A stretch of 63,213 nucleotides of DNA from Candidatus Bathyarchaeia archaeon (GTDB taxonomy: Archaea > Thermoproteota > Bathyarchaeia > Bathyarchaeales > Bathycorpusculaceae), in contig JBBFKZ010000004.1 in assembly GCA_037481775.1 (NCBI GenBank), forward strand, positions 70,252 to 133,464, read 5' to 3'. Positions 24,510 through 47,682 of this stretch are shown piece after piece. Numbering within the stretch: the stretch's first letter is position 1; the number at the start of each line of letters is the position of its first letter. The position numbers and the translations under genes were made by a program. The notes beneath the pieces are model-generated. The model saw only the letters and a list, made by a program, of their open reading frames with translations, had not been told where the DNA came from and made no database searches.

Positions 24510-24797
24510 CTACTTTTTAGCCTTTTTCAACTCTTGAATTATCTTTTGAGTCTCTTCTTCTGAAGGATGACTAATAGCGCCAACAGGGCATATGTCCTCG
24601 CAGCCGCGGCAGAACACCACACAATTGTACGGATTCTTAACAACTGTCCGCTTTTTTCCGTCTTTTTCTTCAAAGTCGAAAGCGTGATTGTGGCAGAACT
24701 CCACGCACTTGCCGCACGTTATGCACTTTTCGTAATCAATTATTGGATACCATGGAATCTTTTCGCGGGGAATCCCTTCGTAAGTTTCTTCTATCAT
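24510..24797 (-). CDS. 4Fe-4S dicluster ferredoxin (ars-island type)
   Basis: CITCGKCVEFC and CVVFCRGCEDICP; GGAGG RBS before ATG 24797. Confidence 0.9.
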   Translation of the reverse strand: MIEETYEGIPREKIPWYPIIDYEKCITCGKCVEFCHNHAFDFEEKDGKKRTVVKNPYNCVVFCRGCEDICPVGAISHPSEEETQKIIQELKKAKK

Positions 24798-24833
24798 TAT
24801 TTTTGCCTCCCTCATTTTTCGGTACCAGATATA

Positions 24834-24857
24834 ATAACAATATTTAAATTTTGTTAT
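24834..24857. promoter_or_regulatory. Palindromic operator candidate (ArsR-type), copy 1
   Basis: ATAACAATATTT|AAATTTTGTTAT, 1 mismatch, between the divergent ferredoxin and arsR. Confidence 0.6.
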
Positions 24858-24908
24858 TGTTTTCTCGTAAACTGTACGGTGGAACAAACAGGAAAAAGGG
24901 GCACGTGT

Positions 24909-24930
24909 ATAACAATATTTAAATATTCAT
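24909..24930. promoter_or_regulatory. Palindromic operator candidate, copy 2
   Basis: ATAACAATATTTAAAT is identical to copy 1 over 16 nt; lies just upstream of arsR. Confidence 0.6.
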
Positions 24931-24947
24931 TTCGCCCCATTTTTCTG

Positions 24948-25274
24948 ATGATGCCTTCACAAACAAACAACAAAAACAAGTTTAAAGCCAAAATTTTCAA
25001 AGCGCTATCAGACCCTGTACGCTTAAGCATATTAGAATTTCTCCGCGACGGCGAAAAATGCGTATGCGAAATCATACCTCACGTCAACCATATCCAACCC
25101 GTAGTCTCCCGACACCTAAAAATCCTCAAAGACACTGGCATAGTCATTGACCGAAAAGAAGGTAACAGAAGACTCTACTCAATAACAGATCAACAAATAT
25201 TCAAAATTATTGACGGATTAACGCCAGAGCTGGTCAACACGTTTGCAAAGAAGATAATTGAACAGATCACCTAG
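24948..25274 (+). CDS. arsR: ArsR/SmtB transcriptional repressor
   Basis: FKALSDPVRL..EKCVCEI..VSRHLKIL; ATG 24948 preferred. Confidence 0.92.
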   Translation: MMPSQTNNKNKFKAKIFKALSDPVRLSILEFLRDGEKCVCEIIPHVNHIQPVVSRHLKILKDTGIVIDRKEGNRRLYSITDQQIFKIIDGLTPELVNTFAKKIIEQIT

Positions 25275-25306
25275 GCGGGAAGGCAAACAGCAAAGGTTGT
25301 GCCGAT

Positions 25307-25468
25307 ATGGATTACCCCACATGCGAACGCAAAACATGTATTCACTGGAAAAACGGGCGATGCATCTTAAAAAACCCAGAAAAATACGACGACACATGCC
25401 TACACTACGAGGACACAATGGATGCACTAAGATTAAAGGCAGACCACCTAAAGGGATCACTTGGGTGA
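25307..25468 (+). CDS. 53-aa four-cysteine microprotein
   Basis: Manual translation MDYPTCERKTCIHWKNGRCILKNPEKYDDTCLHYEDTMDALRLKADHLKGSLG; below the ORF-track cutoff. Confidence 0.65.
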   Translation: MDYPTCERKTCIHWKNGRCILKNPEKYDDTCLHYEDTMDALRLKADHLKGSLG

Positions 25469-25492
25469 ATGCAAGCTATCCAATAGTGCGAG

Positions 25493-25684
25493 CTATCCAT
25501 CACCACAGGCTAATCCATCCATCGCCGCCAAATATCGCCTGGCATCTTCAACTGTTCTAAAAGGTCCGTAAACAAAATCGTACTGCGGGTGGCTTTCTTT
25601 TGTTGGAGTTGTTTCTGACTCAAAAATTTCAGGTTTTGCGTTTTCTTTTATCCCTACATAAACGCCCATCTTTGCTTCCCCCAT
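25493..25684 (-). CDS. Small hypothetical protein with C-terminal ACGDG
   Basis: Protein-like composition; divergent from arsR2 across an operator palindrome. Confidence 0.65.
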   Translation of the reverse strand: MGEAKMGVYVGIKENAKPEIFESETTPTKESHPQYDFVYGPFRTVEDARRYLAAMDGLACGDG

Positions 25685-25702
25685 AAGTAAACCAGATTAT
25701 AA

Positions 25703-25724
25703 ATAACGTATTTAAATATGTTGT
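25703..25724. promoter_or_regulatory. Palindromic operator candidate, copy 3
   Basis: ATAACGTATTT|AAATATGTTGT upstream of arsR2. Confidence 0.55.
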
Positions 25725-25736
25725 TTAATAATTTGT

Positions 25737-26132
25737 ATGTGCTTGATCATGATTGAATCAAAAATTAACGAAAGATTAAGTCGATTAGCCGAAACAGGAA
25801 GCTGCTCTTTTGAGAAAGCATCTGAGTATGTGGATGATTTAAAAGTGCTTGCGGATAAAGGAATGAGCACCGAAGAGGCGGAAGTTAGAAGTAAGTTTTT
25901 TAAGGCACTTGCTGACCCGACAAGGTTGCGGATTCTTGGGTTGCTGAAAGCCCGCGAGATGTGTGTTTGCGAGGTTATGGTTGCGTTGGACTTGACGCAG
26001 CCGACGGCTTCGCATCACTTGGGGATTTTGGAAAATGTTGGGCTTGTAAAGAAACGAAAAGAGGGAAAGTGGGTTTTCTACAGTCTTGCAGATTTGGAAA
26101 AGTTTGAGCTTATTCGTAACATTACGCTTTGA
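25737..26132 (+). CDS. arsR: ArsR/SmtB transcriptional repressor (second copy)
   Basis: FKALADPTRL..EMCVCEV..ASHHLGIL; upstream of acr3. Confidence 0.92.
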   Translation: MCLIMIESKINERLSRLAETGSCSFEKASEYVDDLKVLADKGMSTEEAEVRSKFFKALADPTRLRILGLLKAREMCVCEVMVALDLTQPTASHHLGILENVGLVKKRKEGKWVFYSLADLEKFELIRNITL

Positions 26133-26141
26133 TATTTTACA

Positions 26142-26163
26142 ACAACAAATTTAAATATTTCAA
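26142..26163. promoter_or_regulatory. Operator candidate, copy 4
   Basis: ACAACAAATTTAAATATTTCAA between arsR2 and acr3. Confidence 0.45.
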
Positions 26164-26194
26164 TACGTCGTTTTTAAAGACAAGGCGGAAAACA

Positions 26195-27283
26195 ATGAAA
26201 GAAACAATAGTAAACATCGACAAAACCGAACCATCCAAAAAGGCGTTAACAGAAAAGCAAGCAACAAAACAGGAAGCAACTCTTGGCCTTTTCGAGAAAT
26301 ATTTGACTCTTTGGATTGCCATCTGCATAGTTATCGGCCTGCTGCTTGGGCGCTTTTTGCCGCAGTTCGGTCAGTTCATGGATTCACTCAAGTTCAACAA
26401 GCTCTCCATTCCCATCGGCATTCTCTTGTTCTTTATGATGTACCCCACAGTCGTCGGCATACGCTTCAGCGATATAAAAAAGGCAGCGCAAAACCCAGGA
26501 CCGTTACTGGTCACGATAATCGCAAATTGGGTTGTAGCGCCAGCCCTCATGACACTTTACGCTAACGTGCTTCTCGCTGGAAACCCAGAGTACATTGCAG
26601 GCGTCATACTTCTGGGCTTGTCACCCTGCACCGCCATGGTAATGTGGTGGATGTTCCTAGCCAAAGGAGACATGGCGCAGGGATTAATTAACACAGCCAT
26701 AAACGCATTACTAATGCTTGCACTCTACGCGCCGCTCGCAGCGTTCTATCTCGGCGTAAGCAGCATCCCAGTTCCATGGGATCTTATCGCCACAAGCGTG
26801 CTCATTTTCATCGCGTTGCCTGTCGCCGCTGGTGCAATTTCCCGCAAAGTTATACTAAGCCGAAAAGGTGAAGAATGGTTCAACAACAAGTACATTCCGA
26901 CGCTGGGCAAAATATCCATTGTCGCCTTGCTAACAACGCTTATCGTTTTGTTCTCATTCCAAGGCGAAATCATCCTAACTAATCCGTTATTAGTGGCGTA
27001 TCTCGCCGCGCCGAATCTACTCCATTACGCTACCATGGTCGCATGGACCTACCCTCTGGGCTATTTCCTCGGCTGGAAATATGAGTCAGCTATTGACACC
27101 ATGCTCATAGGCAGCAGCAGCCATTTTGAAGTCGCCATAGCAGTAGCCACTACGCTTTATGGGATAAACTCAGGCGCAGCCTTAGCCACAGTCATCGGAC
27201 CGCTGATGGAAGTGCCACTAATGCTATCGCTTGTCAAACTTGGATTGCGGACCAGAAAATACTTCCCTAGGAAAAAGAAATAA
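26195..27283 (+). CDS. acr3: Arsenite efflux transporter Acr3
   Basis: FEKYLTLWI, MMYP, SPCTAMV, SSHFEVAIA, GPLMEVP. Confidence 0.96.
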   Translation: MKETIVNIDKTEPSKKALTEKQATKQEATLGLFEKYLTLWIAICIVIGLLLGRFLPQFGQFMDSLKFNKLSIPIGILLFFMMYPTVVGIRFSDIKKAAQNPGPLLVTIIANWVVAPALMTLYANVLLAGNPEYIAGVILLGLSPCTAMVMWWMFLAKGDMAQGLINTAINALLMLALYAPLAAFYLGVSSIPVPWDLIATSVLIFIALPVAAGAISRKVILSRKGEEWFNNKYIPTLGKISIVALLTTLIVLFSFQGEIILTNPLLVAYLAAPNLLHYATMVAWTYPLGYFLGWKYESAIDTMLIGSSSHFEVAIAVATTLYGINSGAALATVIGPLMEVPLMLSLVKLGLRTRKYFPRKKK

Positions 27284-27357
27284 GCAACAGAATAGTCGTT
27301 ATCAACTTTAATTGTTTGAATGGCCGCGGAGTTTAAGGGGAAAGTGAGGAGAATTTA

Positions 27358-27924
27358 ATGCATAAAGCAAACACATTGAAACTCAGCGACGCACTTTATA
27401 GCGTGGCAATCCCGATAGTTGTGGCTTTTCTCATAGTAGGCATTGGAATGTCAACTTCACCTGCCGCCACCGGACTCAAATATACGCTGCTAGAAGCCAT
27501 CGTCGCCGTCGGAGTACCCATGCTAATTGGGCTGGCGTGGAACCGGTGGGCAGGCGGAGCCGCAGGTTTTCTCATGGGCAGCTTGTACGCGCTATATTTT
27601 GCAGACCAAGTTTACGCTTCTCAAGGACGCAGCGACATAAGCCTGCTGGGCAATCTGGTCAGCGCCATGCTAATAGGCTACATAGCCGGCGCGTTAAACA
27701 AACGCTCAGACAGCTACAAACGAATGCTCACCTCTGGAGTAATAGCCGGAATCGCAGGCTCCATCATCGTCGTCTACACCAGCAGCTTCTCAACCATTCT
27801 GGGACCCGCAACAATAGGAGCCGCCGCCACAGCATTTCTACCTAGAGTACTAGCCGGAATAATAGTCCCAGTAGTAGCCAGAGCATTCCTGCGGCACAGC
27901 GCAAACAGCAAAAGAACAGAATAG
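27358..27924 (+). CDS. Unknown multi-TM membrane protein (paralog A)
   Basis: GVPMLIGLAWNRWAGGAAGFLMGS..SAMLIGYIAGALNKRS shared with 31167..31796. Confidence 0.75.
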   Translation: MHKANTLKLSDALYSVAIPIVVAFLIVGIGMSTSPAATGLKYTLLEAIVAVGVPMLIGLAWNRWAGGAAGFLMGSLYALYFADQVYASQGRSDISLLGNLVSAMLIGYIAGALNKRSDSYKRMLTSGVIAGIAGSIIVVYTSSFSTILGPATIGAAATAFLPRVLAGIIVPVVARAFLRHSANSKRTE

Positions 27925-28007
27925 CCAGCCGCAGCAGGCACAAAGCTGCATTTGAAAAAAAGCATAATTCAGCCGCTTGCCAGAAAAACCCAAGCGCCCG
28001 CAACGGG

Positions 28008-28397
28008 TTAATATGTGCTTTCGCAATCAAGACAGATGTCGCTTTCCCTGTTTGTCCAATAAGTTTTCCCGCAGCGGGGACAAGTAGTTTTGCGAAGCAA
28101 CTTTTCTTTTTCAGATTTGACAGCGGCAAATGGTGTAATTTTCTGCGGAAAACTAATCGCCTTTTTGTGGCATAAAGGTGCACACGCGGTGCATCCGCTT
28201 ATGCATCTAGCAGGATAGGTGACAACTGCCTTTCCATTTTCATATGTGAAGACGCTGTTTGGGCAGTATTCAACGCAACGCGGCTTACCCAATTTGGCGC
28301 AGCCATCACATTTGTCAGAAAAAATTACTGGAAACCAAGGTGCCTGCGCTGTTGTTATTTTCGTCCACCTAAATGTACGTTTCTTGTTTTTGCCCAT
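28008..28397 (-). CDS. 4Fe-4S ferredoxin with C-terminal zinc ribbon
   Basis: CDGC..CVEYCP, CISGCTACAPLC, then CPRC..CLDC. Confidence 0.85.
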   Translation of the reverse strand: MGKNKKRTFRWTKITTAQAPWFPVIFSDKCDGCAKLGKPRCVEYCPNSVFTYENGKAVVTYPARCISGCTACAPLCHKKAISFPQKITPFAAVKSEKEKLLRKTTCPRCGKTYWTNRESDICLDCESTY

Positions 28398-28436
28398 CGT
28401 CTATTTTGAGAATGTTATTTTTCGCATTATTGATGT

Positions 28437-29489
28437 TTAGAAGCCTCCGGTTAAAATACCGTAAAGTAGTCCAGAGAGTATAGAGGTGCAGAAAGCTAGA
28501 AAGCCGTAGGTAATTACTATTTTCCATCCTATTATACGCGAAGTTGAGAGCATGTTAGGTATGTCATAAGGTTGTCCCATCAGCCACGCAATTGTTGCAG
28601 CAGGAGCCATCCCCAAGTTCACAAGGGCTTTGCCCAAAGCTACCTCGATCAGAGTTGGCGTATACAAAGGTCCAGCTAATATAGCTGAATACACGACGCC
28701 TGCTGGCCCGGTCAAGTAGGCTTCTACAATCTCAGCTGGAAAGAATGCTTGAACATAACTCACAACTACAAGACCCAAAGCGAAAGCAGGAATGATTCTT
28801 TTCGCAAGATAGCCGCCGAACTTTAGAGCACTCCAAAGACGCTCATCCAAGGGTTCCTTAACAAGCTCTATGGAGGTTGTTTGTGCGGGATTTTTCTGGA
28901 ATTTCTGCTCAAATCTGTTACCCCAAGGAGTTTTTGAAACAATGTATCCAATAATAACAGCACTCACTCCTGCGGCAATCATGTCTGCAATTGCAATTTG
29001 CCATCCAAGCACTTGTATGGTCACAATGTCTGCCAATAAATTGTTGGCAGGCGCAGCTAGAAGAAAAGTTAAGGCTGGACCGATGCCTCCTCCAGCGTAA
29101 ATTAAACCTGAAAAAAGCGGCACCATCGTGCAGGAGCAAACACAGAAAAGCGGCGCCATAAGCGTGGCGATTAGGTAAGCAATGGGTTTCCTACTGCTCA
29201 TGTACTTAAGCATAAAAGGTTTAGGAATAAACTCAGCGAAAAGGCCTGAAACAACAAACGCGAAACCAAGGCAGATCCAACCGTGCTGAGCATAGTCCCA
29301 CATATAAACAAGCGGGATTTCCCATAGCGGCAGACCTTGTAGGTCTTCAGCAGTAGAAGTGGGCGTGAGAGTGTAGGCGCCAACAATCGCCCTGATCATC
29401 ATCACGATAAAGAAGGCGATAAAGGCAAGCATCAGAATCGTTTTAAGAACTCGCTTTTTCTCCAACGAATTCACCAAGCCCCTTGCCAA
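28437..29489 (-). CDS. ArsP/DUF318 family permease
   Basis: PLFCVCSCTMVP, FLLAAP, GPLY motifs. Confidence 0.88.
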   Translation of the reverse strand: MARGLVNSLEKKRVLKTILMLAFIAFFIVMMIRAIVGAYTLTPTSTAEDLQGLPLWEIPLVYMWDYAQHGWICLGFAFVVSGLFAEFIPKPFMLKYMSSRKPIAYLIATLMAPLFCVCSCTMVPLFSGLIYAGGGIGPALTFLLAAPANNLLADIVTIQVLGWQIAIADMIAAGVSAVIIGYIVSKTPWGNRFEQKFQKNPAQTTSIELVKEPLDERLWSALKFGGYLAKRIIPAFALGLVVVSYVQAFFPAEIVEAYLTGPAGVVYSAILAGPLYTPTLIEVALGKALVNLGMAPAATIAWLMGQPYDIPNMLSTSRIIGWKIVITYGFLAFCTSILSGLLYGILTGGF

Positions 29490-29552
29490 AAAGGCGGCAT
29501 GATGGCAATTAAAAATTGCGAGAATTCCCGTACATCTTTGGACGATTGGCAG

Positions 29553-29939
29553 CTACGGCGCATTATCTTTTTTGCCTTCTTCTGTTAGATATTCTAGTCC
29601 CTCGGTTGCTGAAGCAAAGACAGTGGAAGCTAACGCAAACCGTGCCGCTATAATTGCCTCAGCTATCTCTTCATTAGTCACGCCGGCGCGCTTGGCAATT
29701 TTGATGAAAGTTTCAGTGCATAAGTGGCTTGAAACAGCAGCTGCAACACCGATCATAATTAGATGCTTATACTTGGCTGGTACATGCGGTAGGTCAAAAA
29801 CGAATTTGCGTTCTTGCGCTTGCCTAGGTATCCATTCTGGGAGAATTTTGGACATGAGCACCATTGGGTGTGGTTCTTCTCCGAGATTCTCAGCCATCAT
29901 TTTTAGAATTTGTTCAACTGTGGGTTTTTGTTCAGTCAA
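29553..29939 (-). CDS. Carboxymuconolactone decarboxylase/AhpD-like protein
   Basis: PAKYKHLIMIGVAAA..HLC..AKRAGVTNEEIAEAI. Confidence 0.85.
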   Translation of the reverse strand: MTEQKPTVEQILKMMAENLGEEPHPMVLMSKILPEWIPRQAQERKFVFDLPHVPAKYKHLIMIGVAAAVSSHLCTETFIKIAKRAGVTNEEIAEAIIAARFALASTVFASATEGLEYLTEEGKKDNAP

Positions 29940-29952
29940 AAAGCGTCACCTT

Positions 29953-30237
29953 TTAGCTAGTTACGCTTTGCCGTATCAGTCTTTCAATAACGCTGGCATC
30001 TGGAACCTTGCCCATGATTTTAACCACACCATTTATTGCAATTGCCGGTGAAGCTAGTACGCCGTACTTTGATATGGTTTCTTGGGCGGCTACGTTTAAC
30101 TTTGTTATTTCAACGTTTATGCCTTCATGTTCCAGCTTTTCAGCAGCTTTTTTCGCGTTCTCTTCGGTTGTTTTACATCGCTGGCAAGGTGGGCTAACTC
30201 CTATAACCTCAACTTTTACGTGCATTTCTGAGTTCAC
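29953..30237 (-). CDS. Small thioredoxin-like redox disulfide protein (MTH895 type)
   Basis: PPCQRC, KYGVLASPAIAING. Confidence 0.9.
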   Translation of the reverse strand: MNSEMHVKVEVIGVSPPCQRCKTTEENAKKAAEKLEHEGINVEITKLNVAAQETISKYGVLASPAIAINGVVKIMGKVPDASVIERLIRQSVTS

Positions 30238-30279
30238 TCCAATACTCAGGTTTTATTGTTATAGCTAAATATAAGTTTA

Positions 30280-30301
30280 TAGATACATTTAAATTTTGCT
30301 A
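30280..30301. promoter_or_regulatory. Operator candidate, copy 5
   Basis: TAGATACATTT|AAATTTTGCTA in the divergent thioredoxin/DUF169 intergenic region. Confidence 0.45.
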
Positions 30302-40678: not shown

Positions 40679-41884
40679 ATGCAAAAGTTGCGCTTGGCCG
40701 TTTTTAACACGCAGCCGCCGCACTTGTACTTTGGCGGGGTAGAACGTCGCATTATGGAAACGGCTAAGCTGCTGGGCGATGAAGTGGATATGACGGTTTA
40801 CTGCGGCACAAAAGCAGGCTTAAAGTCGCCTATGCGCTTCGGCGGCGTCACAATTGTTCCATGCTTCTCCACAGACGTAGCTTATCCGTTAGACAACTGG
40901 TTTTTCAACCGAACCATTGCAGGCGCAGTGGACACCATTAAGGCGGATGTCTATGAGGCGCACGCAGTCAGCGGCTACGGGTTCCTGCGGGAGCTTAGAA
41001 AGCGAAAAATGAAGAAGCCGTTTATACAGACAGTTCACGGTGTCCTCGCAGACGAGTACGTGAAGGCGCTTGAGGGCGGCGCAAAGACGCCGAGGGCGAA
41101 GCTGGCGAACTATTTTATGGGGCGGCTCGCGCATATGGAGAAAACCGCTGCTCAAGACGCCACGCTAATAGTAACTGTTAGTAAGTACTCTGCTGAGAAA
41201 ATCGTGCAGTACTACAATGTGGACAGGGCGAAGATAAGGGTAGCATCTAACGGCGTTGACACGCAGAGATTTAGACCAGCCGCAAACCGCGAGAAAATTC
41301 GACAGCAAATAGGCGTAGCCGGCAGGCCATGTGTGCTTTTTGTGGGTAGATTAATCCCAAGGAAAGGCCTCGGCTTCCTAGTTGAAGCAGCTAAGCAGAT
41401 CGTCAAAGACTTCCATGACGCAGTTTTCCTAATTGTGGGCGACGGCCCCATGCGCAGCCAGCTCACGGCGTATCTGCGCGAAATAAATCTCTTAGGCAAC
41501 TTCCGGTTCCTCGGCGACGTAAAGGAGCAGCAGCTTCCGGCGCTATATAATTGCGCGGATGTTTTTGTATTGCCGTCAATTCAGGAAGGCTTAGGCATAG
41601 TGCTACTGGAAGCACAGGCCACCGCGATCCCAGTCATCGCCTTCGACGTGGGCGGCGTGGCCGAGGCAATAAGCGCCGGAGAGACAGGCTTGCTGCTGAA
41701 GCCAAACAGCCGCAGGTTAGCAGACGCGATTCTGAAGCTTCTTTCAGATGCCAGGTTAAGGGCAAAAATGGGCACTAGGGGCCGCAAGTTCGTTTCAGAA
41801 CATTTTTCTTGGCGCAGCTGCGCTGAAAAAATGCTGCAGATTTACCGGGAAGCCTTAGCATTTGACGCCGACGGCTTTCGCTAA
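40679..41884 (+). CDS. GT4 glycosyltransferase
   Basis: GGVE, NGVD, FVGRLIPRKG, EGLGIVLLEAQA. Confidence 0.93.
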   Translation: MQKLRLAVFNTQPPHLYFGGVERRIMETAKLLGDEVDMTVYCGTKAGLKSPMRFGGVTIVPCFSTDVAYPLDNWFFNRTIAGAVDTIKADVYEAHAVSGYGFLRELRKRKMKKPFIQTVHGVLADEYVKALEGGAKTPRAKLANYFMGRLAHMEKTAAQDATLIVTVSKYSAEKIVQYYNVDRAKIRVASNGVDTQRFRPAANREKIRQQIGVAGRPCVLFVGRLIPRKGLGFLVEAAKQIVKDFHDAVFLIVGDGPMRSQLTAYLREINLLGNFRFLGDVKEQQLPALYNCADVFVLPSIQEGLGIVLLEAQATAIPVIAFDVGGVAEAISAGETGLLLKPNSRRLADAILKLLSDARLRAKMGTRGRKFVSEHFSWRSCAEKMLQIYREALAFDADGFR

Positions 41885-42382
41885 GCGCCTAAGGTCGCTG
41901 TCGCTCATCCACTCGGTTTTTAAGTATTCGCAGATGCGCTTGTCACTGAGCCCTAGCCGGCGCGCTTCCTCTACTGTGTAACGGTAAGCCTCGATTTCGG
42001 TGGGTCTGTCGACATAGTTGTAGCGGTTGTCAAAAAGTTCTCTGCCTTCCAGCCACTGCTTAACGTGGCATAGCTCATGGATTATGTCCAAGTAAATGTC
42101 AACTTTGTCGCCTGTGCTTAGATAGCGCTTGTTGATTACGAGATGCCCCGTTTCGCTGTCAACATACATGTATCCGCCGAGCCATGTGAAATCAACCTTT
42201 AGATTGCGGAGAATCTCCTCGGTTTTTTCGCCGAAAAGTCGTTTCACCGCTTCTACCTTCTCGAAGTCCTTAAAGTACTCTGCGAAGTAGCATGTTGAAA
42301 TATTTAGTTGCAACGGCCTGTTTACGGGGAGCTTTCTGAAAAACCGCGTTATCCTAAACACGATGTACTCAAGCCAGTCCAC
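41855..42382 (-). CDS. Hypothetical protein with HExxH metalloprotease-like motif
   Basis: IIHELCHVKQ..RPTEIEAY. Confidence 0.7.
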   Translation of the reverse strand: MDWLEYIVFRITRFFRKLPVNRPLQLNISTCYFAEYFKDFEKVEAVKRLFGEKTEEILRNLKVDFTWLGGYMYVDSETGHLVINKRYLSTGDKVDIYLDIIHELCHVKQWLEGRELFDNRYNYVDRPTEIEAYRYTVEEARRLGLSDKRICEYLKTEWMSDSDLRRLAKAVGVKC

Positions 42383-42397
42383 AGTCGCCTGCCGCTC

Positions 42398-43762
42398 CTA
42401 GCCAAAGGCTGAGAGATACTCAAGTTTCATGCCTCTTTGCACCATCTCCACTGGGTTAGCTACGCATCCGATGCTGGCGTCAATGTTACCGTGCACTGGA
42501 TGGCGCCACATGCTTTCAGGCTTAAGATTAAACTGCAGCGGCACCTCGATTTTTACGCTATATCGCTCCGGCAAATCGCCAAGGAACTGCCCAGCGCGGA
42601 TGGCTGTGCGGAGTGCAGTGTAGCTTTGCAAGAGTTTAGTCGCGGCGAAGGCGCCGACGCCGTGCCACAGGGCAGCACGTTCAGGCGACGCCAGCGCGTA
42701 TAGGAAGAATTGGGGTGAAGAGGGCGTTTCCGTGAAGCTGTAATCCTTAAGCTGATCGCCTTTTACGGTGAATCGGTCTTCAGCCTTCGCTATGCTGACG
42801 TCGTTTGGGTCTATCTCATTTGGGTAAAGCATTGTAGTCTGGTATGTGACGCTAACGTTGTCCAGTTTGGTGCCTTCGAAGTGGATTTTGCCGCGAGCGG
42901 CACGCTTGGAGCCGTAACCCAACTTGGAATGCGGCACAGTTAGCAGCGTTGTCCTGCTCGCCATGCTTCTTCCCATACAACTATATGCTTGGCTTACTGA
43001 CTCGTAGTCCCTGTGCACGCTACTGATTACATAATGTAGCAAGCTATCTTTAGCCTCAGCCTGCAAGGTAGTCAGAGGCATACGCAACGTGTAAAGCGAT
43101 AGATCCATTCCGAAGGTTTGGGATAACTCCTCCATCTGCGCGTACTTCACAGAATCAACGAAGTCCATGTAAGAGCCCGCGGCGCAGTCAAGTTGGCGGC
43201 CTATAAGCTCAACCTCCTGCCTTGAGATCAACGCGCCTTCATATTTGCGCACGAATTCCTTGTCGATTTTAAGCTGGTCTGTTTTGACGTATGCCACGGG
43301 AAAAGCGCTTTGCCCGCTCTCAACAATAGAAGCGCGCAGCGGATTCATAGAGTAGCGGTCAGCTTCTATTTCGTCGGTGTTAAGTAGAAAAGCTATTATC
43401 GGCCCTTCAGAGGGCTTCTTAAGCGCCTCGCATATCTGGTTTATGTCCGCTGCGGTTGGCGTGTGAAGCCCATATTTGGCGAAGTGGTTACCGCATGTTT
43501 CCAACATACGCGCGCCGATGATGCCTTGAACTTCTTCGAGTGTCAGCTGCGGATTTGAGTATTCAACTGAACCGCGCAGGAAAAAGTAACTGCCATCAAA
43601 TGACGCACTAATTTTCTGGCCGTTTCTAAACTTGAATAGTGAAACAGTTTTTGCAGCTTTTTCGTTTCTTAAGCTGTTGAGCTTTTCAACGAGAATTTTT
43701 AAGCAGGGCCAGCAGGTTTTAAGGAAATCTTGCGTGAGTGTGCGGCACAAGTCATTATGCAT
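42398..43762 (-). CDS. Hypothetical protein (454 aa)
   Basis: Long ORF tightly spaced between the GNAT and HExxH genes; no family recognised. Confidence 0.75.
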   Translation of the reverse strand: MHNDLCRTLTQDFLKTCWPCLKILVEKLNSLRNEKAAKTVSLFKFRNGQKISASFDGSYFFLRGSVEYSNPQLTLEEVQGIIGARMLETCGNHFAKYGLHTPTAADINQICEALKKPSEGPIIAFLLNTDEIEADRYSMNPLRASIVESGQSAFPVAYVKTDQLKIDKEFVRKYEGALISRQEVELIGRQLDCAAGSYMDFVDSVKYAQMEELSQTFGMDLSLYTLRMPLTTLQAEAKDSLLHYVISSVHRDYESVSQAYSCMGRSMASRTTLLTVPHSKLGYGSKRAARGKIHFEGTKLDNVSVTYQTTMLYPNEIDPNDVSIAKAEDRFTVKGDQLKDYSFTETPSSPQFFLYALASPERAALWHGVGAFAATKLLQSYTALRTAIRAGQFLGDLPERYSVKIEVPLQFNLKPESMWRHPVHGNIDASIGCVANPVEMVQRGMKLEYLSAFG

Positions 43763-44611: not shown

Positions 44612-44718
44612 ACATGGGTATTCTTGTGTGTTCTGAGACATAAGCCTACCCACTGGTTTTCTTGATGAAGCTTTGGAGTTGCGTTGTAGGCGGCGCGGCA
44701 CGGCTGGATTCCGATGGC

Positions 44719-44764
44719 TATTCAGATTTTTCTGAATTTTCAGAAAAGGATAAATATTCAGATT
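44719..44764. promoter_or_regulatory. TTCAGA/TCTGAA operator array upstream of AbrB-arsM
   Basis: Half-sites at 44721, 44731 (reverse), 44739 and 44757; overlapping palindromes ATTCAGA-N4-TCTGAAT and TTTTCTGAA-N2-TTCAGAAAA. Confidence 0.6.
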
Positions 44765-44797
44765 CGATTAGCCTAACGCACGCGAGGGAGAAACAAA

Positions 44798-45049
44798 TTG
44801 TCCAGCGAAAAATGCTGCAAAATCGAAGCAATAGTCACAGTAGACGCTAAAGGCCAGATAGTTCTTCCAAAAGATTTGAGGGAGAAGGCAAAACTGGCAC
44901 CGAACGACAAGCTGGCAGTTATAGGCTGCGAATGCAGCGGCGAAATCTGCTGCTTAATCATCGTTAAGGCCGCTACGCTTGGAAACCAAGTAAAACAAGC
45001 GCTAGGGCCAATTCTGCAAGAAGCCTTCAAAGGAGGTGAAGAACATTGA
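44798..45049 (+). CDS. Cys-rich AbrB/MazE-fold DNA-binding protein
   Basis: TVDAKGQIVLPKDLRE AbrB motif; CC, CxC and CC cysteine clusters. Confidence 0.85.
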   Translation: MSSEKCCKIEAIVTVDAKGQIVLPKDLREKAKLAPNDKLAVIGCECSGEICCLIIVKAATLGNQVKQALGPILQEAFKGGEEH

Positions 45050-45861
45050 ACGAAGAGAAAGTAAAACAAGTGGTACGTGAAGCCTATGGTGAAATAGCGA
45101 AGGCGGAAAAGTGCGGTTGCGGCTGCAGCTGCGGTTGCGACTCAAACGTTAGCGAGAACACAGGGTATAGCCCAGAAGAATTAAGCAACATACCCGAAGG
45201 CGCAGACTTGAACCTGGGCTGCGGAAACCCCGTGGCTCTAGCAACCCTCAGAGAGGGCGAAACGGTAGTTGACCTCGGCTCAGGCGCAGGCTTAGACTGC
45301 TTTTTAGCCGCGAAAAAAGTAGGCGAGAAAGGACATGTAATAGGCGTGGACATGACGCCTGAGATGCTCGATAGAGCACGGGAAAACTGCAGGCGAGGCG
45401 GCTACAAAAACGTGGAATTTCGTCTAGGCGAAATAGAAAACTTGCCGATTGCCGACAACACCGCGGACGTGATAATCAGTAACTGCGTGATTAATCTGTC
45501 ACCGAACAAGCAACGAGTGTTCAACGAAGCCTTCCGCGTGCTCAAGCCAGGCGGCCGAATGATAATCTCGGACATGGTTCTGCTGGATGAGTTGCCGGAG
45601 TCGCTGAAGGAGAACATGCAAGCGTACATAGGCTGCGTTGCAGGTGCAGAAATGAAAACCGAATATCTTAAGCTCATAGAAAACGCAGGCTTCAAACAAA
45701 TAGAAATCATTAAAGAAGCACATTTGCCCCTTGAGTTAGTGCTAAGCGACGTAACAGCTAAGGCTATAGCAGAGAAGATAGCAGCATCCAAGGAACATGT
45801 CGTGAAGATAGCTAATTCTGTAGCAAGCGTGACAATTTCGGTGATAAAGCCCAAAAAGTAA
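45046..45861 (+). CDS. arsM: Arsenite methyltransferase
   Basis: N-terminal CGCGCSCGC, LGCGNP, DLGSGAG, SNCVINL, GCVAGA. Confidence 0.94.
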   Translation: MNEEKVKQVVREAYGEIAKAEKCGCGCSCGCDSNVSENTGYSPEELSNIPEGADLNLGCGNPVALATLREGETVVDLGSGAGLDCFLAAKKVGEKGHVIGVDMTPEMLDRARENCRRGGYKNVEFRLGEIENLPIADNTADVIISNCVINLSPNKQRVFNEAFRVLKPGGRMIISDMVLLDELPESLKENMQAYIGCVAGAEMKTEYLKLIENAGFKQIEIIKEAHLPLELVLSDVTAKAIAEKIAASKEHVVKIANSVASVTISVIKPKK

Positions 45862-45899
45862 AACAACCCTCTTTTTTCGGTTATTTCTTGCATAATCCA

Positions 45900-46158: not shown

Positions 46159-47682
46159 ATGTTGGGCGGCTTGTTTGGAGTAGCTTCTAAAGACGAATGC
46201 GCAAAAGACCTGTTTTTTGGAACAGACTACAACACGCATCTCGGCACTGAAGTGGGTGGTTTAGCTTTACTCGATGGTGACATAACCATATATTCTCACG
46301 ACATCAGCAATAGTCAGTTTAAGTCGAAGTTCGGCAAGCACTATGGAAAATTGAAGGGCAAATTGGGCATAGGCGTTATCAGCGACACCAAAGAAGAGCA
46401 GCCCGTCAAATTTGAGACGAAAATCGGAAATTTCGCTCTTTGCACAATTGGTTTAATAAAGAACTCAAAAGAGCTTTACACGGAATTGGTCAACAAAGGC
46501 GTCACATTCAAAAAATCAAGACAGAAAGCTGGTGCCACCGTTTTTAACCAGACAGAGATTGTTGGCGAACTAATATGCCGAGGCGACAGCATAGCAGATG
46601 GTATAGCAAAAATGTACGAGAAAATTGAGGGGTCAATATCTCTGCTGTTGCTCTCGGAAAACGAACGCGCCATATACGCGGCTGGAGACACCTTTCCGTT
46701 AGTGGTAGGCTCAAAAGAGCAGGGCTGGGCAGTTGCGTCGGAGACTACAAGTTTTCCGAACTTGGGATACAAAGCCTTCAAGTTTCTTGACTACCGCGAA
46801 ATTGTCTCACTTAATGAAAACGGCTTAAAAACGCGAGTGCCTACTCATGGCAAAAAGAGATTCTGCCCATTTCTCCACGTGTACTCAGGCTTTCCCGCTT
46901 CGGATTTTTACAGCATAAACTCCGAAATCGTCAGAGAACGATGTGGCGGGTTCTTAGCCGAAAACGATAACGTAAAAGCCGACCTCGTGCTGGGCATCGC
47001 AGACTCCGGGCTTCCGCACTCGGTTGGTTACGTCAAAAGAAAAATCGAGATAGCCAAAGAAAAAATCCAAGAATACCTTTCAGAATTTAACCACGGCAAA
47101 ATCACCTCAAAAGAACTTGAAAAAAGAATAAACGCCGTTCTGGAGTTAGTTGCGCCCCTTAGACGACCGCTGATCAAATACACGCCTGGATGGGGAAGAA
47201 GTTACATTCCACCAGTGCAGCGTAAGCGTGAGCTCATCGCAAAATACAAGCAAGTGCCCAACCCACAGATGATAAAGGGCAAAAGCATAATTTTAGTAGA
47301 CGACTCAATACGGCGGGGAACGCAGCTGCAGAATCTGCTGCGGGACAAAATTTTGCCCTTCCAGCCAAAAGAGATCCATGGAAGAATAGCATCTCCACCG
47401 CAGCTTCACCCGTGCATCTTTGACTTGTCAACTAAGAATAGCGATTTAGCTACGCATAAAAGTTTCAATACTAGCCAGCGAGAAAGCGATCTTGCACAGT
47501 GTATTGATCCAACAACCGAGAAGTACAAGAATATGGTGGAGGAAATAAGAAAACGCATTGGATTTTCAACACTGCGTTTTCTCACTTTAGAAGAGATGAT
47601 CCGAGCAGTAATTGAAGCGCCAAACAATCAGAATTTGAGAAGAGAAGATTTGTGCACCTACTGCTGGACAGGACGCTGTTGA
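46159..47682 (+). CDS. purF: Amidophosphoribosyltransferase-like protein lacking the N-terminal Cys
   Basis: VASET, PRPP motif VDDSIRRGTQ, Fe-S cysteines FCPF/HPC/LCTYC; N-terminus MLGGLFG. Confidence 0.85.
   Translation: MLGGLFGVASKDECAKDLFFGTDYNTHLGTEVGGLALLDGDITIYSHDISNSQFKSKFGKHYGKLKGKLGIGVISDTKEEQPVKFETKIGNFALCTIGLIKNSKELYTELVNKGVTFKKSRQKAGATVFNQTEIVGELICRGDSIADGIAKMYEKIEGSISLLLLSENERAIYAAGDTFPLVVGSKEQGWAVASETTSFPNLGYKAFKFLDYREIVSLNENGLKTRVPTHGKKRFCPFLHVYSGFPASDFYSINSEIVRERCGGFLAENDNVKADLVLGIADSGLPHSVGYVKRKIEIAKEKIQEYLSEFNHGKITSKELEKRINAVLELVAPLRRPLIKYTPGWGRSYIPPVQRKRELIAKYKQVPNPQMIKGKSIILVDDSIRRGTQLQNLLRDKILPFQPKEIHGRIASPPQLHPCIFDLSTKNSDLATHKSFNTSQRESDLAQCIDPTTEKYKNMVEEIRKRIGFSTLRFLTLEEMIRAVIEAPNNQNLRREDLCTYCWTGRC

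Follow-up and report, generated by a model that had tools for sequence, protein, structure and literature searches.

A cysteine-rich AbrB-fold protein of the HgcC family encoded directly ahead of arsM in a Bathyarchaeial genome: a candidate metal(loid)-sensing repressor

The stretch of DNA analysed here (the window) comprises 63,213 nucleotides of contig C4 from the 1.82-Mb, 96.7% complete genome of a Candidatus Bathyarchaeia archaeon, and our subject is a pair of overlapping genes on its plus strand, in which a small cysteine-rich protein of the HgcC family is encoded directly ahead of arsM, the gene for an arsenite S-adenosylmethionine methyltransferase. The first gene (44798-45049), delimited from a list of open reading frames (ORFs) and from family models, starts with TTG and encodes 83 amino acids (aa); the second (45046-45861) likewise starts with TTG, encodes 271 aa and shares with the first the four nucleotides TTGA at 45046-45049. 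The position of the first start codon is kept in relatives (TTG in loci L006-L008 and L010, ATG in L009). As far as can be read from the sequence, the purine run GAGGGAG (44784-44790, plus strand), 8-14 nt 5' of the TTG, could serve as a Shine-Dalgarno-like element, and GTGA or GGAGG occupies this position in relatives. The run of six T residues located 11 nt 3' of the arsM stop codon (45872-45877, plus strand) is a possible archaeal oligo-T terminator of a two-gene transcript; the next gene, which encodes a glutamine amidotransferase/phosphoribosyltransferase-type protein, starts at 46159.

The 83-aa protein matches the NCBIfam equivalog model NF040962, 'HgcAB-associated protein HgcC', along the whole model (positions 1-70 of 70) with 101.8 bits against a cut-off of 70, and a search of the entire genome with this model returned a single place, the gene at 44798-45049 (101.2 bits). 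The models PF04014 (MazE_antitoxin/AbrB; 27.7 bits, cut-off 24.7) and TIGR01439 (AbrB; 38.1 bits, cut-off 28.3) are also matched, in agreement with an earlier note on this DNA, which had recognized an 83-aa AbrB-fold ORF with CC, CxC and CC motifs and a 4-nt overlap with arsM. No ArsR or helix-turn-helix (HTH) family was found among the Pfam and NCBIfam matches of the protein, and hence no winged HTH. When a profile of 93 relatives was compared with the PDB, AbrB/SpoVT-type chains alone were retrieved at E <= 0.01. The AlphaFold2 model of the monomer, based on the same number of relatives, has a mean predicted local distance difference test score (pLDDT) of 83.7 and exhibits a helix (residues 25-30), two strands (39-46 and 49-57) and a further helix (58-78), including the helix and hairpin expected of the AbrB type; its top PDB matches in Foldseek are SpoVT, the N-terminal domain of AbrB, the Sulfolobus histone-like protein/Sso7c4 and MazE, with probabilities of 0.93-1.00 for the best 12. 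Several loop and helix residues are near-invariant among 151 diverse representatives of the family, namely D16 (in 150), K/R18 (148), G19 (150), Q20 (148), P24 (149), K25 (145) and R28 (150), and the C-terminal helix (58-78) bears a conserved LGP motif. Judged by its sequence and its modelled structure, the 83-aa protein is an AbrB/SpoVT-fold member of the HgcC family.

The As(III) sites of some ArsR repressors and of ArsD are known to be made of vicinal cysteine pairs, as are Hg(II) sites of MerA, MerT and HgcB. The 83-aa protein contains C6C7 in its N-terminal tail, C44xC46, and C51C52 in the last strand of the core. Among the 151 representatives C52 is kept in 136, C51 in 115, C7 in 112, C6 in 87 and C44 in 32, and the six commonest residues at position 46 are K, R, S, E, Q and G, with C not among them. 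In the 161 proteins encoded at the loci described below, the N-terminal tail (the part before the first strand) contains CC in 155 and at least two cysteines in 158, and the core CC is present in 158. On account of these counts the two CC pairs are regarded as hallmarks of the family and CxC as a local extra, which was discarded as a sensing motif; the cysteines emphasized in the earlier note are thus conserved as far as the two pairs are concerned, and not in the case of CxC.

The product of the second gene scores 352.6 bits with the model NF008823 (cut-off 263) and is the sole ArsM above cut-off in the genome. Among solved structures the closest is 5evj ('Arsenite methyltransferase', E 2.1e-36), to which the cysteines of the GCGNP, SNCVINL and GC..GA motifs are aligned. 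In an alignment of 40 partners of HgcC-family proteins these cysteines (C59, C147 and C197) are invariant, and an N-terminal cysteine cluster is retained as well (C25 invariant, C23 and C27 conserved at >= 90%), together with M1 (>= 90%). By its sequence, the 45046-45861 product is an arsenite methyltransferase.

A word-index search identified 832 proteins related to the 83-aa protein at E <= 0.001, and an exhaustive search of 50%-identity representatives returned 343 clusters at E <= 0.001, 145 of them at E <= 1e-10; the nearest relatives are all labelled Bathyarchaeia or Bathyarchaeota. Two sets of loci were compared. One was drawn from species-representative genomes (the best 80 of 131 relatives, 77 with Bathyarchae- labels and the others labelled Krumholzibacteriaceae, Nitrososphaeria and Sulfotelmatobacter), the other from metagenome contigs (the best 80 of at least 588 relatives, sought with a profile of more distant family members, headed by P0134). 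The gene downstream was classified by tblastn with the ArsM of the window and the HgcA of locus L091. In the genome set it is arsM at 78 loci and hgcA at none, with one contig end (L042) and one other case (L079); in the metagenome set it is arsM at 55 and hgcA at 19, with five contig ends and one other case (L126). Over all 160 loci this amounts to 133 with arsM, 19 with hgcA, two with neither and six at a contig end. The association with hgcAB, raised in the earlier note, is therefore real, and because of the same counts the name 'HgcAB-associated' fits a minority context in the samples examined.

Of ten downstream ORFs submitted to NCBIfam, seven are HgcA above cut-off (324-461 bits against 275); those of L143 (81 aa) and L127 matched no NCBIfam family, and tblastn places hgcA behind L127, L143 and L144. 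At L124 an enoyl-CoA-hydratase-like gene is inserted ahead of arsM. The sole complete locus with neither arsM nor hgcA is L079 (6744-8228), where the HgcC-like gene stands alone, divergent from a homologue of acr3 (its product 37% identical to the Acr3 of the window), and the intergenic region between the two contains TCWGA boxes of the kind described below.

Of 201 evenly sampled Bathyarchaeia genomes, 31 (the host genome included) encode HgcC above cut-off, and one of the other 30 (G111) encodes HgcA above cut-off. There hgcC and hgcA form a cluster of adjacent genes with that of an hgcB-like ferredoxin whose sequence ends in ACCE (L176 = G111:C13:2500-5200, 417-2040), and the HgcC-like protein keeps the core CC. 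In the host genome no HgcA was found above cut-off, the best score being 78.1 bits against 275, for a CdhD/E-type gene on contig C21. Thus the window protein scores above the NF040962 cut-off, with its AbrB-type fold and core CC, and has relatives that precede hgcA (at 19 of the 80 metagenome loci and in G111), but the association with hgcAB implied by the family name is absent from its own genome and its partner is arsM.

A quick maximum-likelihood tree of 153 proteins, with few columns and many open forks, unites the 79 Bathyarchaeial arsM-linked rows in one group (support of 100 in the Shimodaira-Hasegawa-like approximate likelihood ratio test, SH-aLRT) and nests the hgcA-linked rows among metagenome arsM-linked rows, with four changes of label, at least two of them forced by starred branches. 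As far as the sequences allow, the tree shows the interleaving of arsM- and hgcA-linked members, not its direction. Three members with non-Bathyarchaeial labels, L016, L077 and L078 (Krumholzibacteriaceae, Nitrososphaeria and Sulfotelmatobacter, respectively), fall inside the Bathyarchaeial group, which could be due to mis-binning or gene transfer. The pairing of an HgcC-family gene with arsM or hgcA is kept down to ~51% identity, across one archaeal class and into bacterial-type loci, and the two partner enzymes share chemistry, not structure.

Upstream of the first gene the earlier note had seen four TTCAGA half-sites, and these were found at 44721 (+), 44731 (-), 44739 (+) and 44757 (+). 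They contain four TCWGA boxes in a 9-bp register (44722-44762, no strand assigned), TCAGA at 44722-44726, TCTGA at 44731-44735, and TCAGA at 44740-44744 and 44758-44762, i.e. at offsets 0, 9, 18 and 36. At offset 27, where a box is missing, stands the TATA-like ATAAATAT (44750-44757, plus strand), the candidate promoter of the operon; just 5' of it lies the A-rich AGAAAAGG (44742-44749, plus strand), and these elements resemble the TATA box and the transcription factor B recognition element (BRE) of archaeal promoters. The hexamer TTCAGA is not enriched across the whole window (45 occurrences found, 38.7 expected). Stretches of 45 nt with at least four TCWGA, however, occur in the 63-kb window only with starts at 44718-44722, and at least three TCWGA in 9-bp register are found in a single place in the 1.82-Mb genome, the array at 44722-44762; the genome-wide scan revealed no wider regulon of phased boxes.

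The same array accompanies the gene elsewhere, at the promoters of almost all relatives from the two domains. Counted in the 100 nt 5' of the start codon, with other 100-nt windows of the same loci as background, TCWGA has a mean of 1.89 per 100 nt at Bathyarchaeial arsM loci (n=79; background 0.18), 2.06 at metagenome arsM loci (n=52; background 0.17) and 2.05 at metagenome hgcA loci (n=19; background 0.17), an enrichment of about ten-fold in all three groups (archaeal arsM, bacterial-type arsM and hgcA loci). The distance from one box to the next is a multiple of 9 bp in 70 of 75, 54 of 56 and 19 of 20 cases, respectively, namely 9, 18, 27 or 36 bp and in rare cases 45 or 54 bp. The Bathyarchaeial boxes are placed on either side of the TATA box: a simple TATA pattern served to anchor 66 of 81 loci, whose consensus is TTCtgAtTTTTcAGAAAAgtaTAAATATTCtgA, also written A.TttTc.GAtttTTCtgAtTTTTcAGAAAAgtaTAAATATTCtgAa; TAAAT is its best conserved stretch, and the TATA box starts mostly 38-45 nt 5' of the start codon; the 15 unanchored loci have a like layout with variant TATA words. 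Among the metagenome loci with enough upstream sequence an exact TTGACA is present in 64 of 76 and is followed by the boxes in 62 of the 64, with a peak 35-49 nt from the first base of TTGACA, where the -10 element and the start would be expected, and in this respect most metagenome loci look bacterial in their promoters. Given these upstream comparisons, the boxes are the one non-coding feature common to archaeal and bacterial-type promoters, whatever enzyme follows.

Four metagenome loci (L092, L096, L098 and L104) have a bacterial-type TTGACA/-10 and then the 'archaeal' core TCAGAAAAGT(A/T)TAAATATTCTGA; because both are present there, the A/T-rich centre may belong to the operator and not to the TATA box only. 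In the hgcA-linked Bathyarchaeon G111, TCCGA-N4-TCGGA stands beside CTTAAATA, a like architecture with a variant core.

A conserved, 9-bp-phased array is what the operator of an autoregulator should look like, and the array is accordingly regarded as a candidate operator; its position, around the TATA box or over the -10 and start region, would be typical of a repressor. From these comparisons the view of the HgcC-family protein as a regulator is well supported. Going one step further, we consider it probable, if by a modest measure, that hgcC and arsM form a self-contained two-gene operon whose first product is an autoregulatory, thiol-based, metal(loid)-sensing repressor. In the mechanism that we envisage, the protein, as a dimer or a higher oligomer, would bind the phased TCWGA boxes that bracket its own TATA box (in bacteria, the bound boxes would cover the -10 and start region) and block the initiation of transcription, which would repress both its own gene and arsM. 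A soft metal(loid), most likely As(III) here and Hg(II) in hgcAB-linked relatives, would be bound by the thiolates of the N-terminal CC and the core CC and would loosen the protein from the DNA, so that the methyltransferase would be made only when its substrate is present. Four points of this scheme are inferred, namely that the boxes are read by this protein and not by another, that transcription is repressed as a result, that a metal(loid) is bound by the cysteines, and that it is As(III) or Hg(II). The observations of the earlier note have thus been confirmed, and its interpretation, a distinct class of metalloid-sensing autorepressor for methylation genes, is supported in part, with the link to hgcAB established, the regulator strengthened by comparison and CxC abandoned.

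The footprint that travels with the gene and the presence of a single array in the genome count in favour of this repressor. A number of points weigh on the other side. The E-values of the Foldseek matches are weak (best 0.04, none <= 0.001), which is expected because only ~50 residues are aligned. The N-terminal CC is less well kept in distant representatives (C6 in 87 and C7 in 112 of 151) and is missing from the hgcA-linked Bathyarchaeial member of G111, and since the N-terminal tail is unstructured in the monomer model, a meeting of the two CC pairs in space is conjectural. Box pairs with a spacing of 9 bp show no enrichment over the whole genome (6, compared with 8-13 in shuffled sequences), so that only the array is special; the 9-bp period is off the helical repeat of DNA, which makes the geometry of binding hard to picture, and another factor might conceivably be the one that reads the boxes. 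Besides, the 4-nt overlap suggests equimolar synthesis, which would also fit a protein partner of ArsM, and no experimental or expression data were found on any member of the HgcC family.

The alternative that survives best retains the autoregulator and changes the signal: the cysteines would be structural (binding Zn or an Fe-S cluster) or would sense the thiol-redox state, and the protein would respond to redox or sulfide stress or maintain a fixed level of expression. The boxes and the promoter speak for it exactly as they do for a metal(loid) sensor, the metal(loid) ligand is itself a proposal, and the hosts, judged from genome titles (mostly metagenome-assembled genomes of Bathyarchaeia), are anaerobes, in which thiol chemistry is generally redox-sensitive. 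Nonetheless, the only functional thread running through 152 of the 160 loci is the methylation of the thiophilic elements As and Hg, to which L079 adds acr3, and it is therefore these elements that are pointed to as the signal; moreover, adjacent cysteines generally have a geometry ill suited to a single Zn or Fe-S site and common in sites for As(III) and Hg(II). We consider a signal other than a metal(loid) rather unlikely.

According to another explanation the protein would be a metallochaperone or thiol partner, which hands As(III) or Hg(II) to ArsM or HgcAB or re-reduces cysteines of the enzyme, with the AbrB fold serving as a scaffold; such a role may coexist with regulation. The strict adjacency of the gene to the methylating enzyme, which it precedes at 152 of 160 loci, would agree with this, as would the coupled translation suggested by the 4-nt overlap, the conserved vicinal cysteine pairs and the N-terminal cysteine cluster (C23, C25, C27) retained by the ArsM partners. 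However, ArsM is a Rossmann-type S-adenosylmethionine methyltransferase and HgcA a membrane corrinoid protein, with no fold in common, yet the small protein, including its LGP helix, is conserved beside both; the residues of the DNA-contact type in the AbrB fold are near-invariant; a pure chaperone needs no conserved array of boxes travelling with its gene; and at L079 the gene has no methyltransferase partner and faces acr3. This explanation is unlikely, and we place it slightly below the preceding one. Finally, a relic type II antitoxin of the PrlF/MazE/VapB kind, functionally unconnected with arsM, to which the annotation of relatives as 'antitoxin PrlF', the match to Pfam MazE_antitoxin and the treatment of hgcA-linked members as toxin-antitoxin genes in the accessible text of PMC10349881 might point, is highly improbable and was discarded, as no toxin gene adjoins the gene (what follows is arsM or hgcA at 152 of 160 loci), the specific equivalog model NF040962 is matched above cut-off, and the pairing is kept to ~51% identity throughout an archaeal class and in bacterial-type loci.

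Returning to the metal(loid)-sensing repressor, its kinship with AbrB, SpoVT, Sso7c4 and MraZ is seen in the profile and model matches, the small size, and the basic loop and helix. None of the matched solved chains of AbrB, SpoVT or Sso7c4 is described as a metal sensor, and the HgcC family differs from all of these proteins by the CC in the N-terminal tail, the CC in the last strand, the C-terminal LGP helix and the TCWGA boxes with a 9-bp period. MraZ binds arrays of short direct repeats, spaced by ~10 bp, in its own promoter. With the ArsR/SmtB family the proposed protein would share its principle, that of an autorepressor encoded by the first gene of an operon for arsenic or hgcAB functions and released by a thiophilic metal(loid) on cysteines, but the fold is different, and the 83-aa protein, which has no ArsR/HTH match, is not a member; genuine ArsR/SmtB genes are located at 24567-26132, next to acr3. 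ArsD, an arsenic metallochaperone and weak repressor, resembles the 83-aa protein in being small, in having vicinal cysteine pairs and in being encoded beside an arsenic enzyme; it serves the ArsA ATPase, not ArsM, and no relation in sequence or fold was seen among the family-model, PDB-profile or Foldseek matches of the 83-aa protein. An ArsR-like regulator of hgcAB has reportedly been characterized in Pseudodesulfovibrio mercurii ND132 by Gionfriddo and co-workers in 2023, and to our knowledge the only hgcAB regulator tested so far is of this ArsR-like kind.

The 83-aa protein is, then, a member of a catalogued but uncharacterised family, and, if the function proposed here holds, it would add a structurally new variant to the metal(loid)-responsive repressors. 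More tentatively, and with somewhat less than even confidence, we suggest that the HgcC family represents a new structural class of thiolate metal(loid) sensor, built on the AbrB swapped hairpin instead of the HTH, in which one type of switch and operator is used for arsM and hgcAB in both archaea and bacteria. If so, the AbrB fold would join the known families of metal sensors, a second switch of hgcAB/arsM type, structurally unrelated to ArsR, would exist, and hgcAB would be physiologically wired into the response to soft metal(loid)s, with an inducer that could be found via the HgcC-family protein. How microbial As and Hg methylation is controlled in anoxic sediments, soils and rice paddies bears on health and is still an open question; a sensor of this kind would offer a handle on the timing of arsenic methylation by Bathyarchaeia, which are abundant archaea of sediments, and the family name HgcC would be worth correcting. 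As the candidate operator is well defined, the hypothesis is directly testable with an 83-residue protein and 50 bp of DNA.

The regulatory role of hgcA-linked members has been suggested before. Zhang et al. 2023 (ISME Commun, PMC10349881) describe a gene, annotated as abrB, prlF or mazE, that lies directly 5' of hgcA. Fourteen hgcAB contigs have it, as do 8 of 31 confirmed methylator genomes (6 of these 8 being archaeal), and it is proposed there as a putative archaeal regulator; the text contains no occurrence of the word 'cysteine' and no description of the pairing with arsM. From their position and annotation these prlF/abrB genes appear to be members of the NF040962 family. Hence, as far as these sources go, the HgcC family is already catalogued (NCBIfam) and its hgcA-linked members have already been proposed as regulators (PMC10349881); a report of 2026 (PMC13362967), in its accessible text, merely cites the idea. 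In the literature searched, subscription journals lying outside it, no account was found of the link to arsM, of the array of boxes or of the paired cysteines of the HgcC family, and within the same bounds nothing relevant was retrieved for 'HgcC' with mercury or for 'HgcAB-associated protein'; a bioRxiv preprint that contains both 'AbrB' and 'arsM' (10.1101/2020.12.16.422644) is, in its accessible text, unrelated.

Other arsenic genes of the window lie at a distance from arsM. Two ArsR/SmtB-family genes are found at 24567-25274 (235 aa, with the HTH in the C-terminal half) and 25737-26132 (131 aa), with NF033788 scores of 88 and 102.5 bits, and the second shares 4 nt with acr3 (26129-27283; TIGR00832, 342.9 bits). 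This arsR-acr3 unit (24567-27283) is separated from arsM by ~18 kb, and as the neighbours of arsM are housekeeping or unknown genes, arsM stands apart from the ArsR-controlled genes, in keeping with the earlier note. The notion of an 'arsenic island' around arsM was rejected, its neighbours being IleRS, a glycosyltransferase, two unknown proteins, a GNAT protein, a PurF-like protein, RNase HII and an HTH protein. The two unknowns are minus-strand ORFs of 175 and 454 aa at 41855-43762, between the glycosyltransferase and GNAT genes, for which Pfam gave no match at E <= 0.001. In the flanks of the 161 loci homologues of acr3 occur in 7 and those of arsR in 6.

The half-sites ahead of hgcC were also said in the earlier note to be unlike the island motif ATTTAAAT. 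All five matches of this motif in the window (24842, 24917, 25710, 26149 and 30287) are confined to the 5.5 kb at 24842-30294, around arsR-acr3, with none near arsM. Their total is not above chance (2.9 expected in the 63-kb window); the clustering within 5.5 kb is worth mentioning, as is the location of one palindrome 27 nt 5' of an arsR ATG, and these palindromes might represent an ArsR operator or be no more than TATA boxes. Beside acr3, on the minus strand (28008-29939), there are three genes, encoding a ferredoxin-like protein weakly similar to the HgcB type (28.8 bits, far under the cut-off), a permease weakly similar to SaoE and to Cu/Zn efflux families, and a small protein weakly similar to the AhpD-like domains fused to ArsM selenoproteins, which together may form a wider cluster for metal(loid) or thiol stress.

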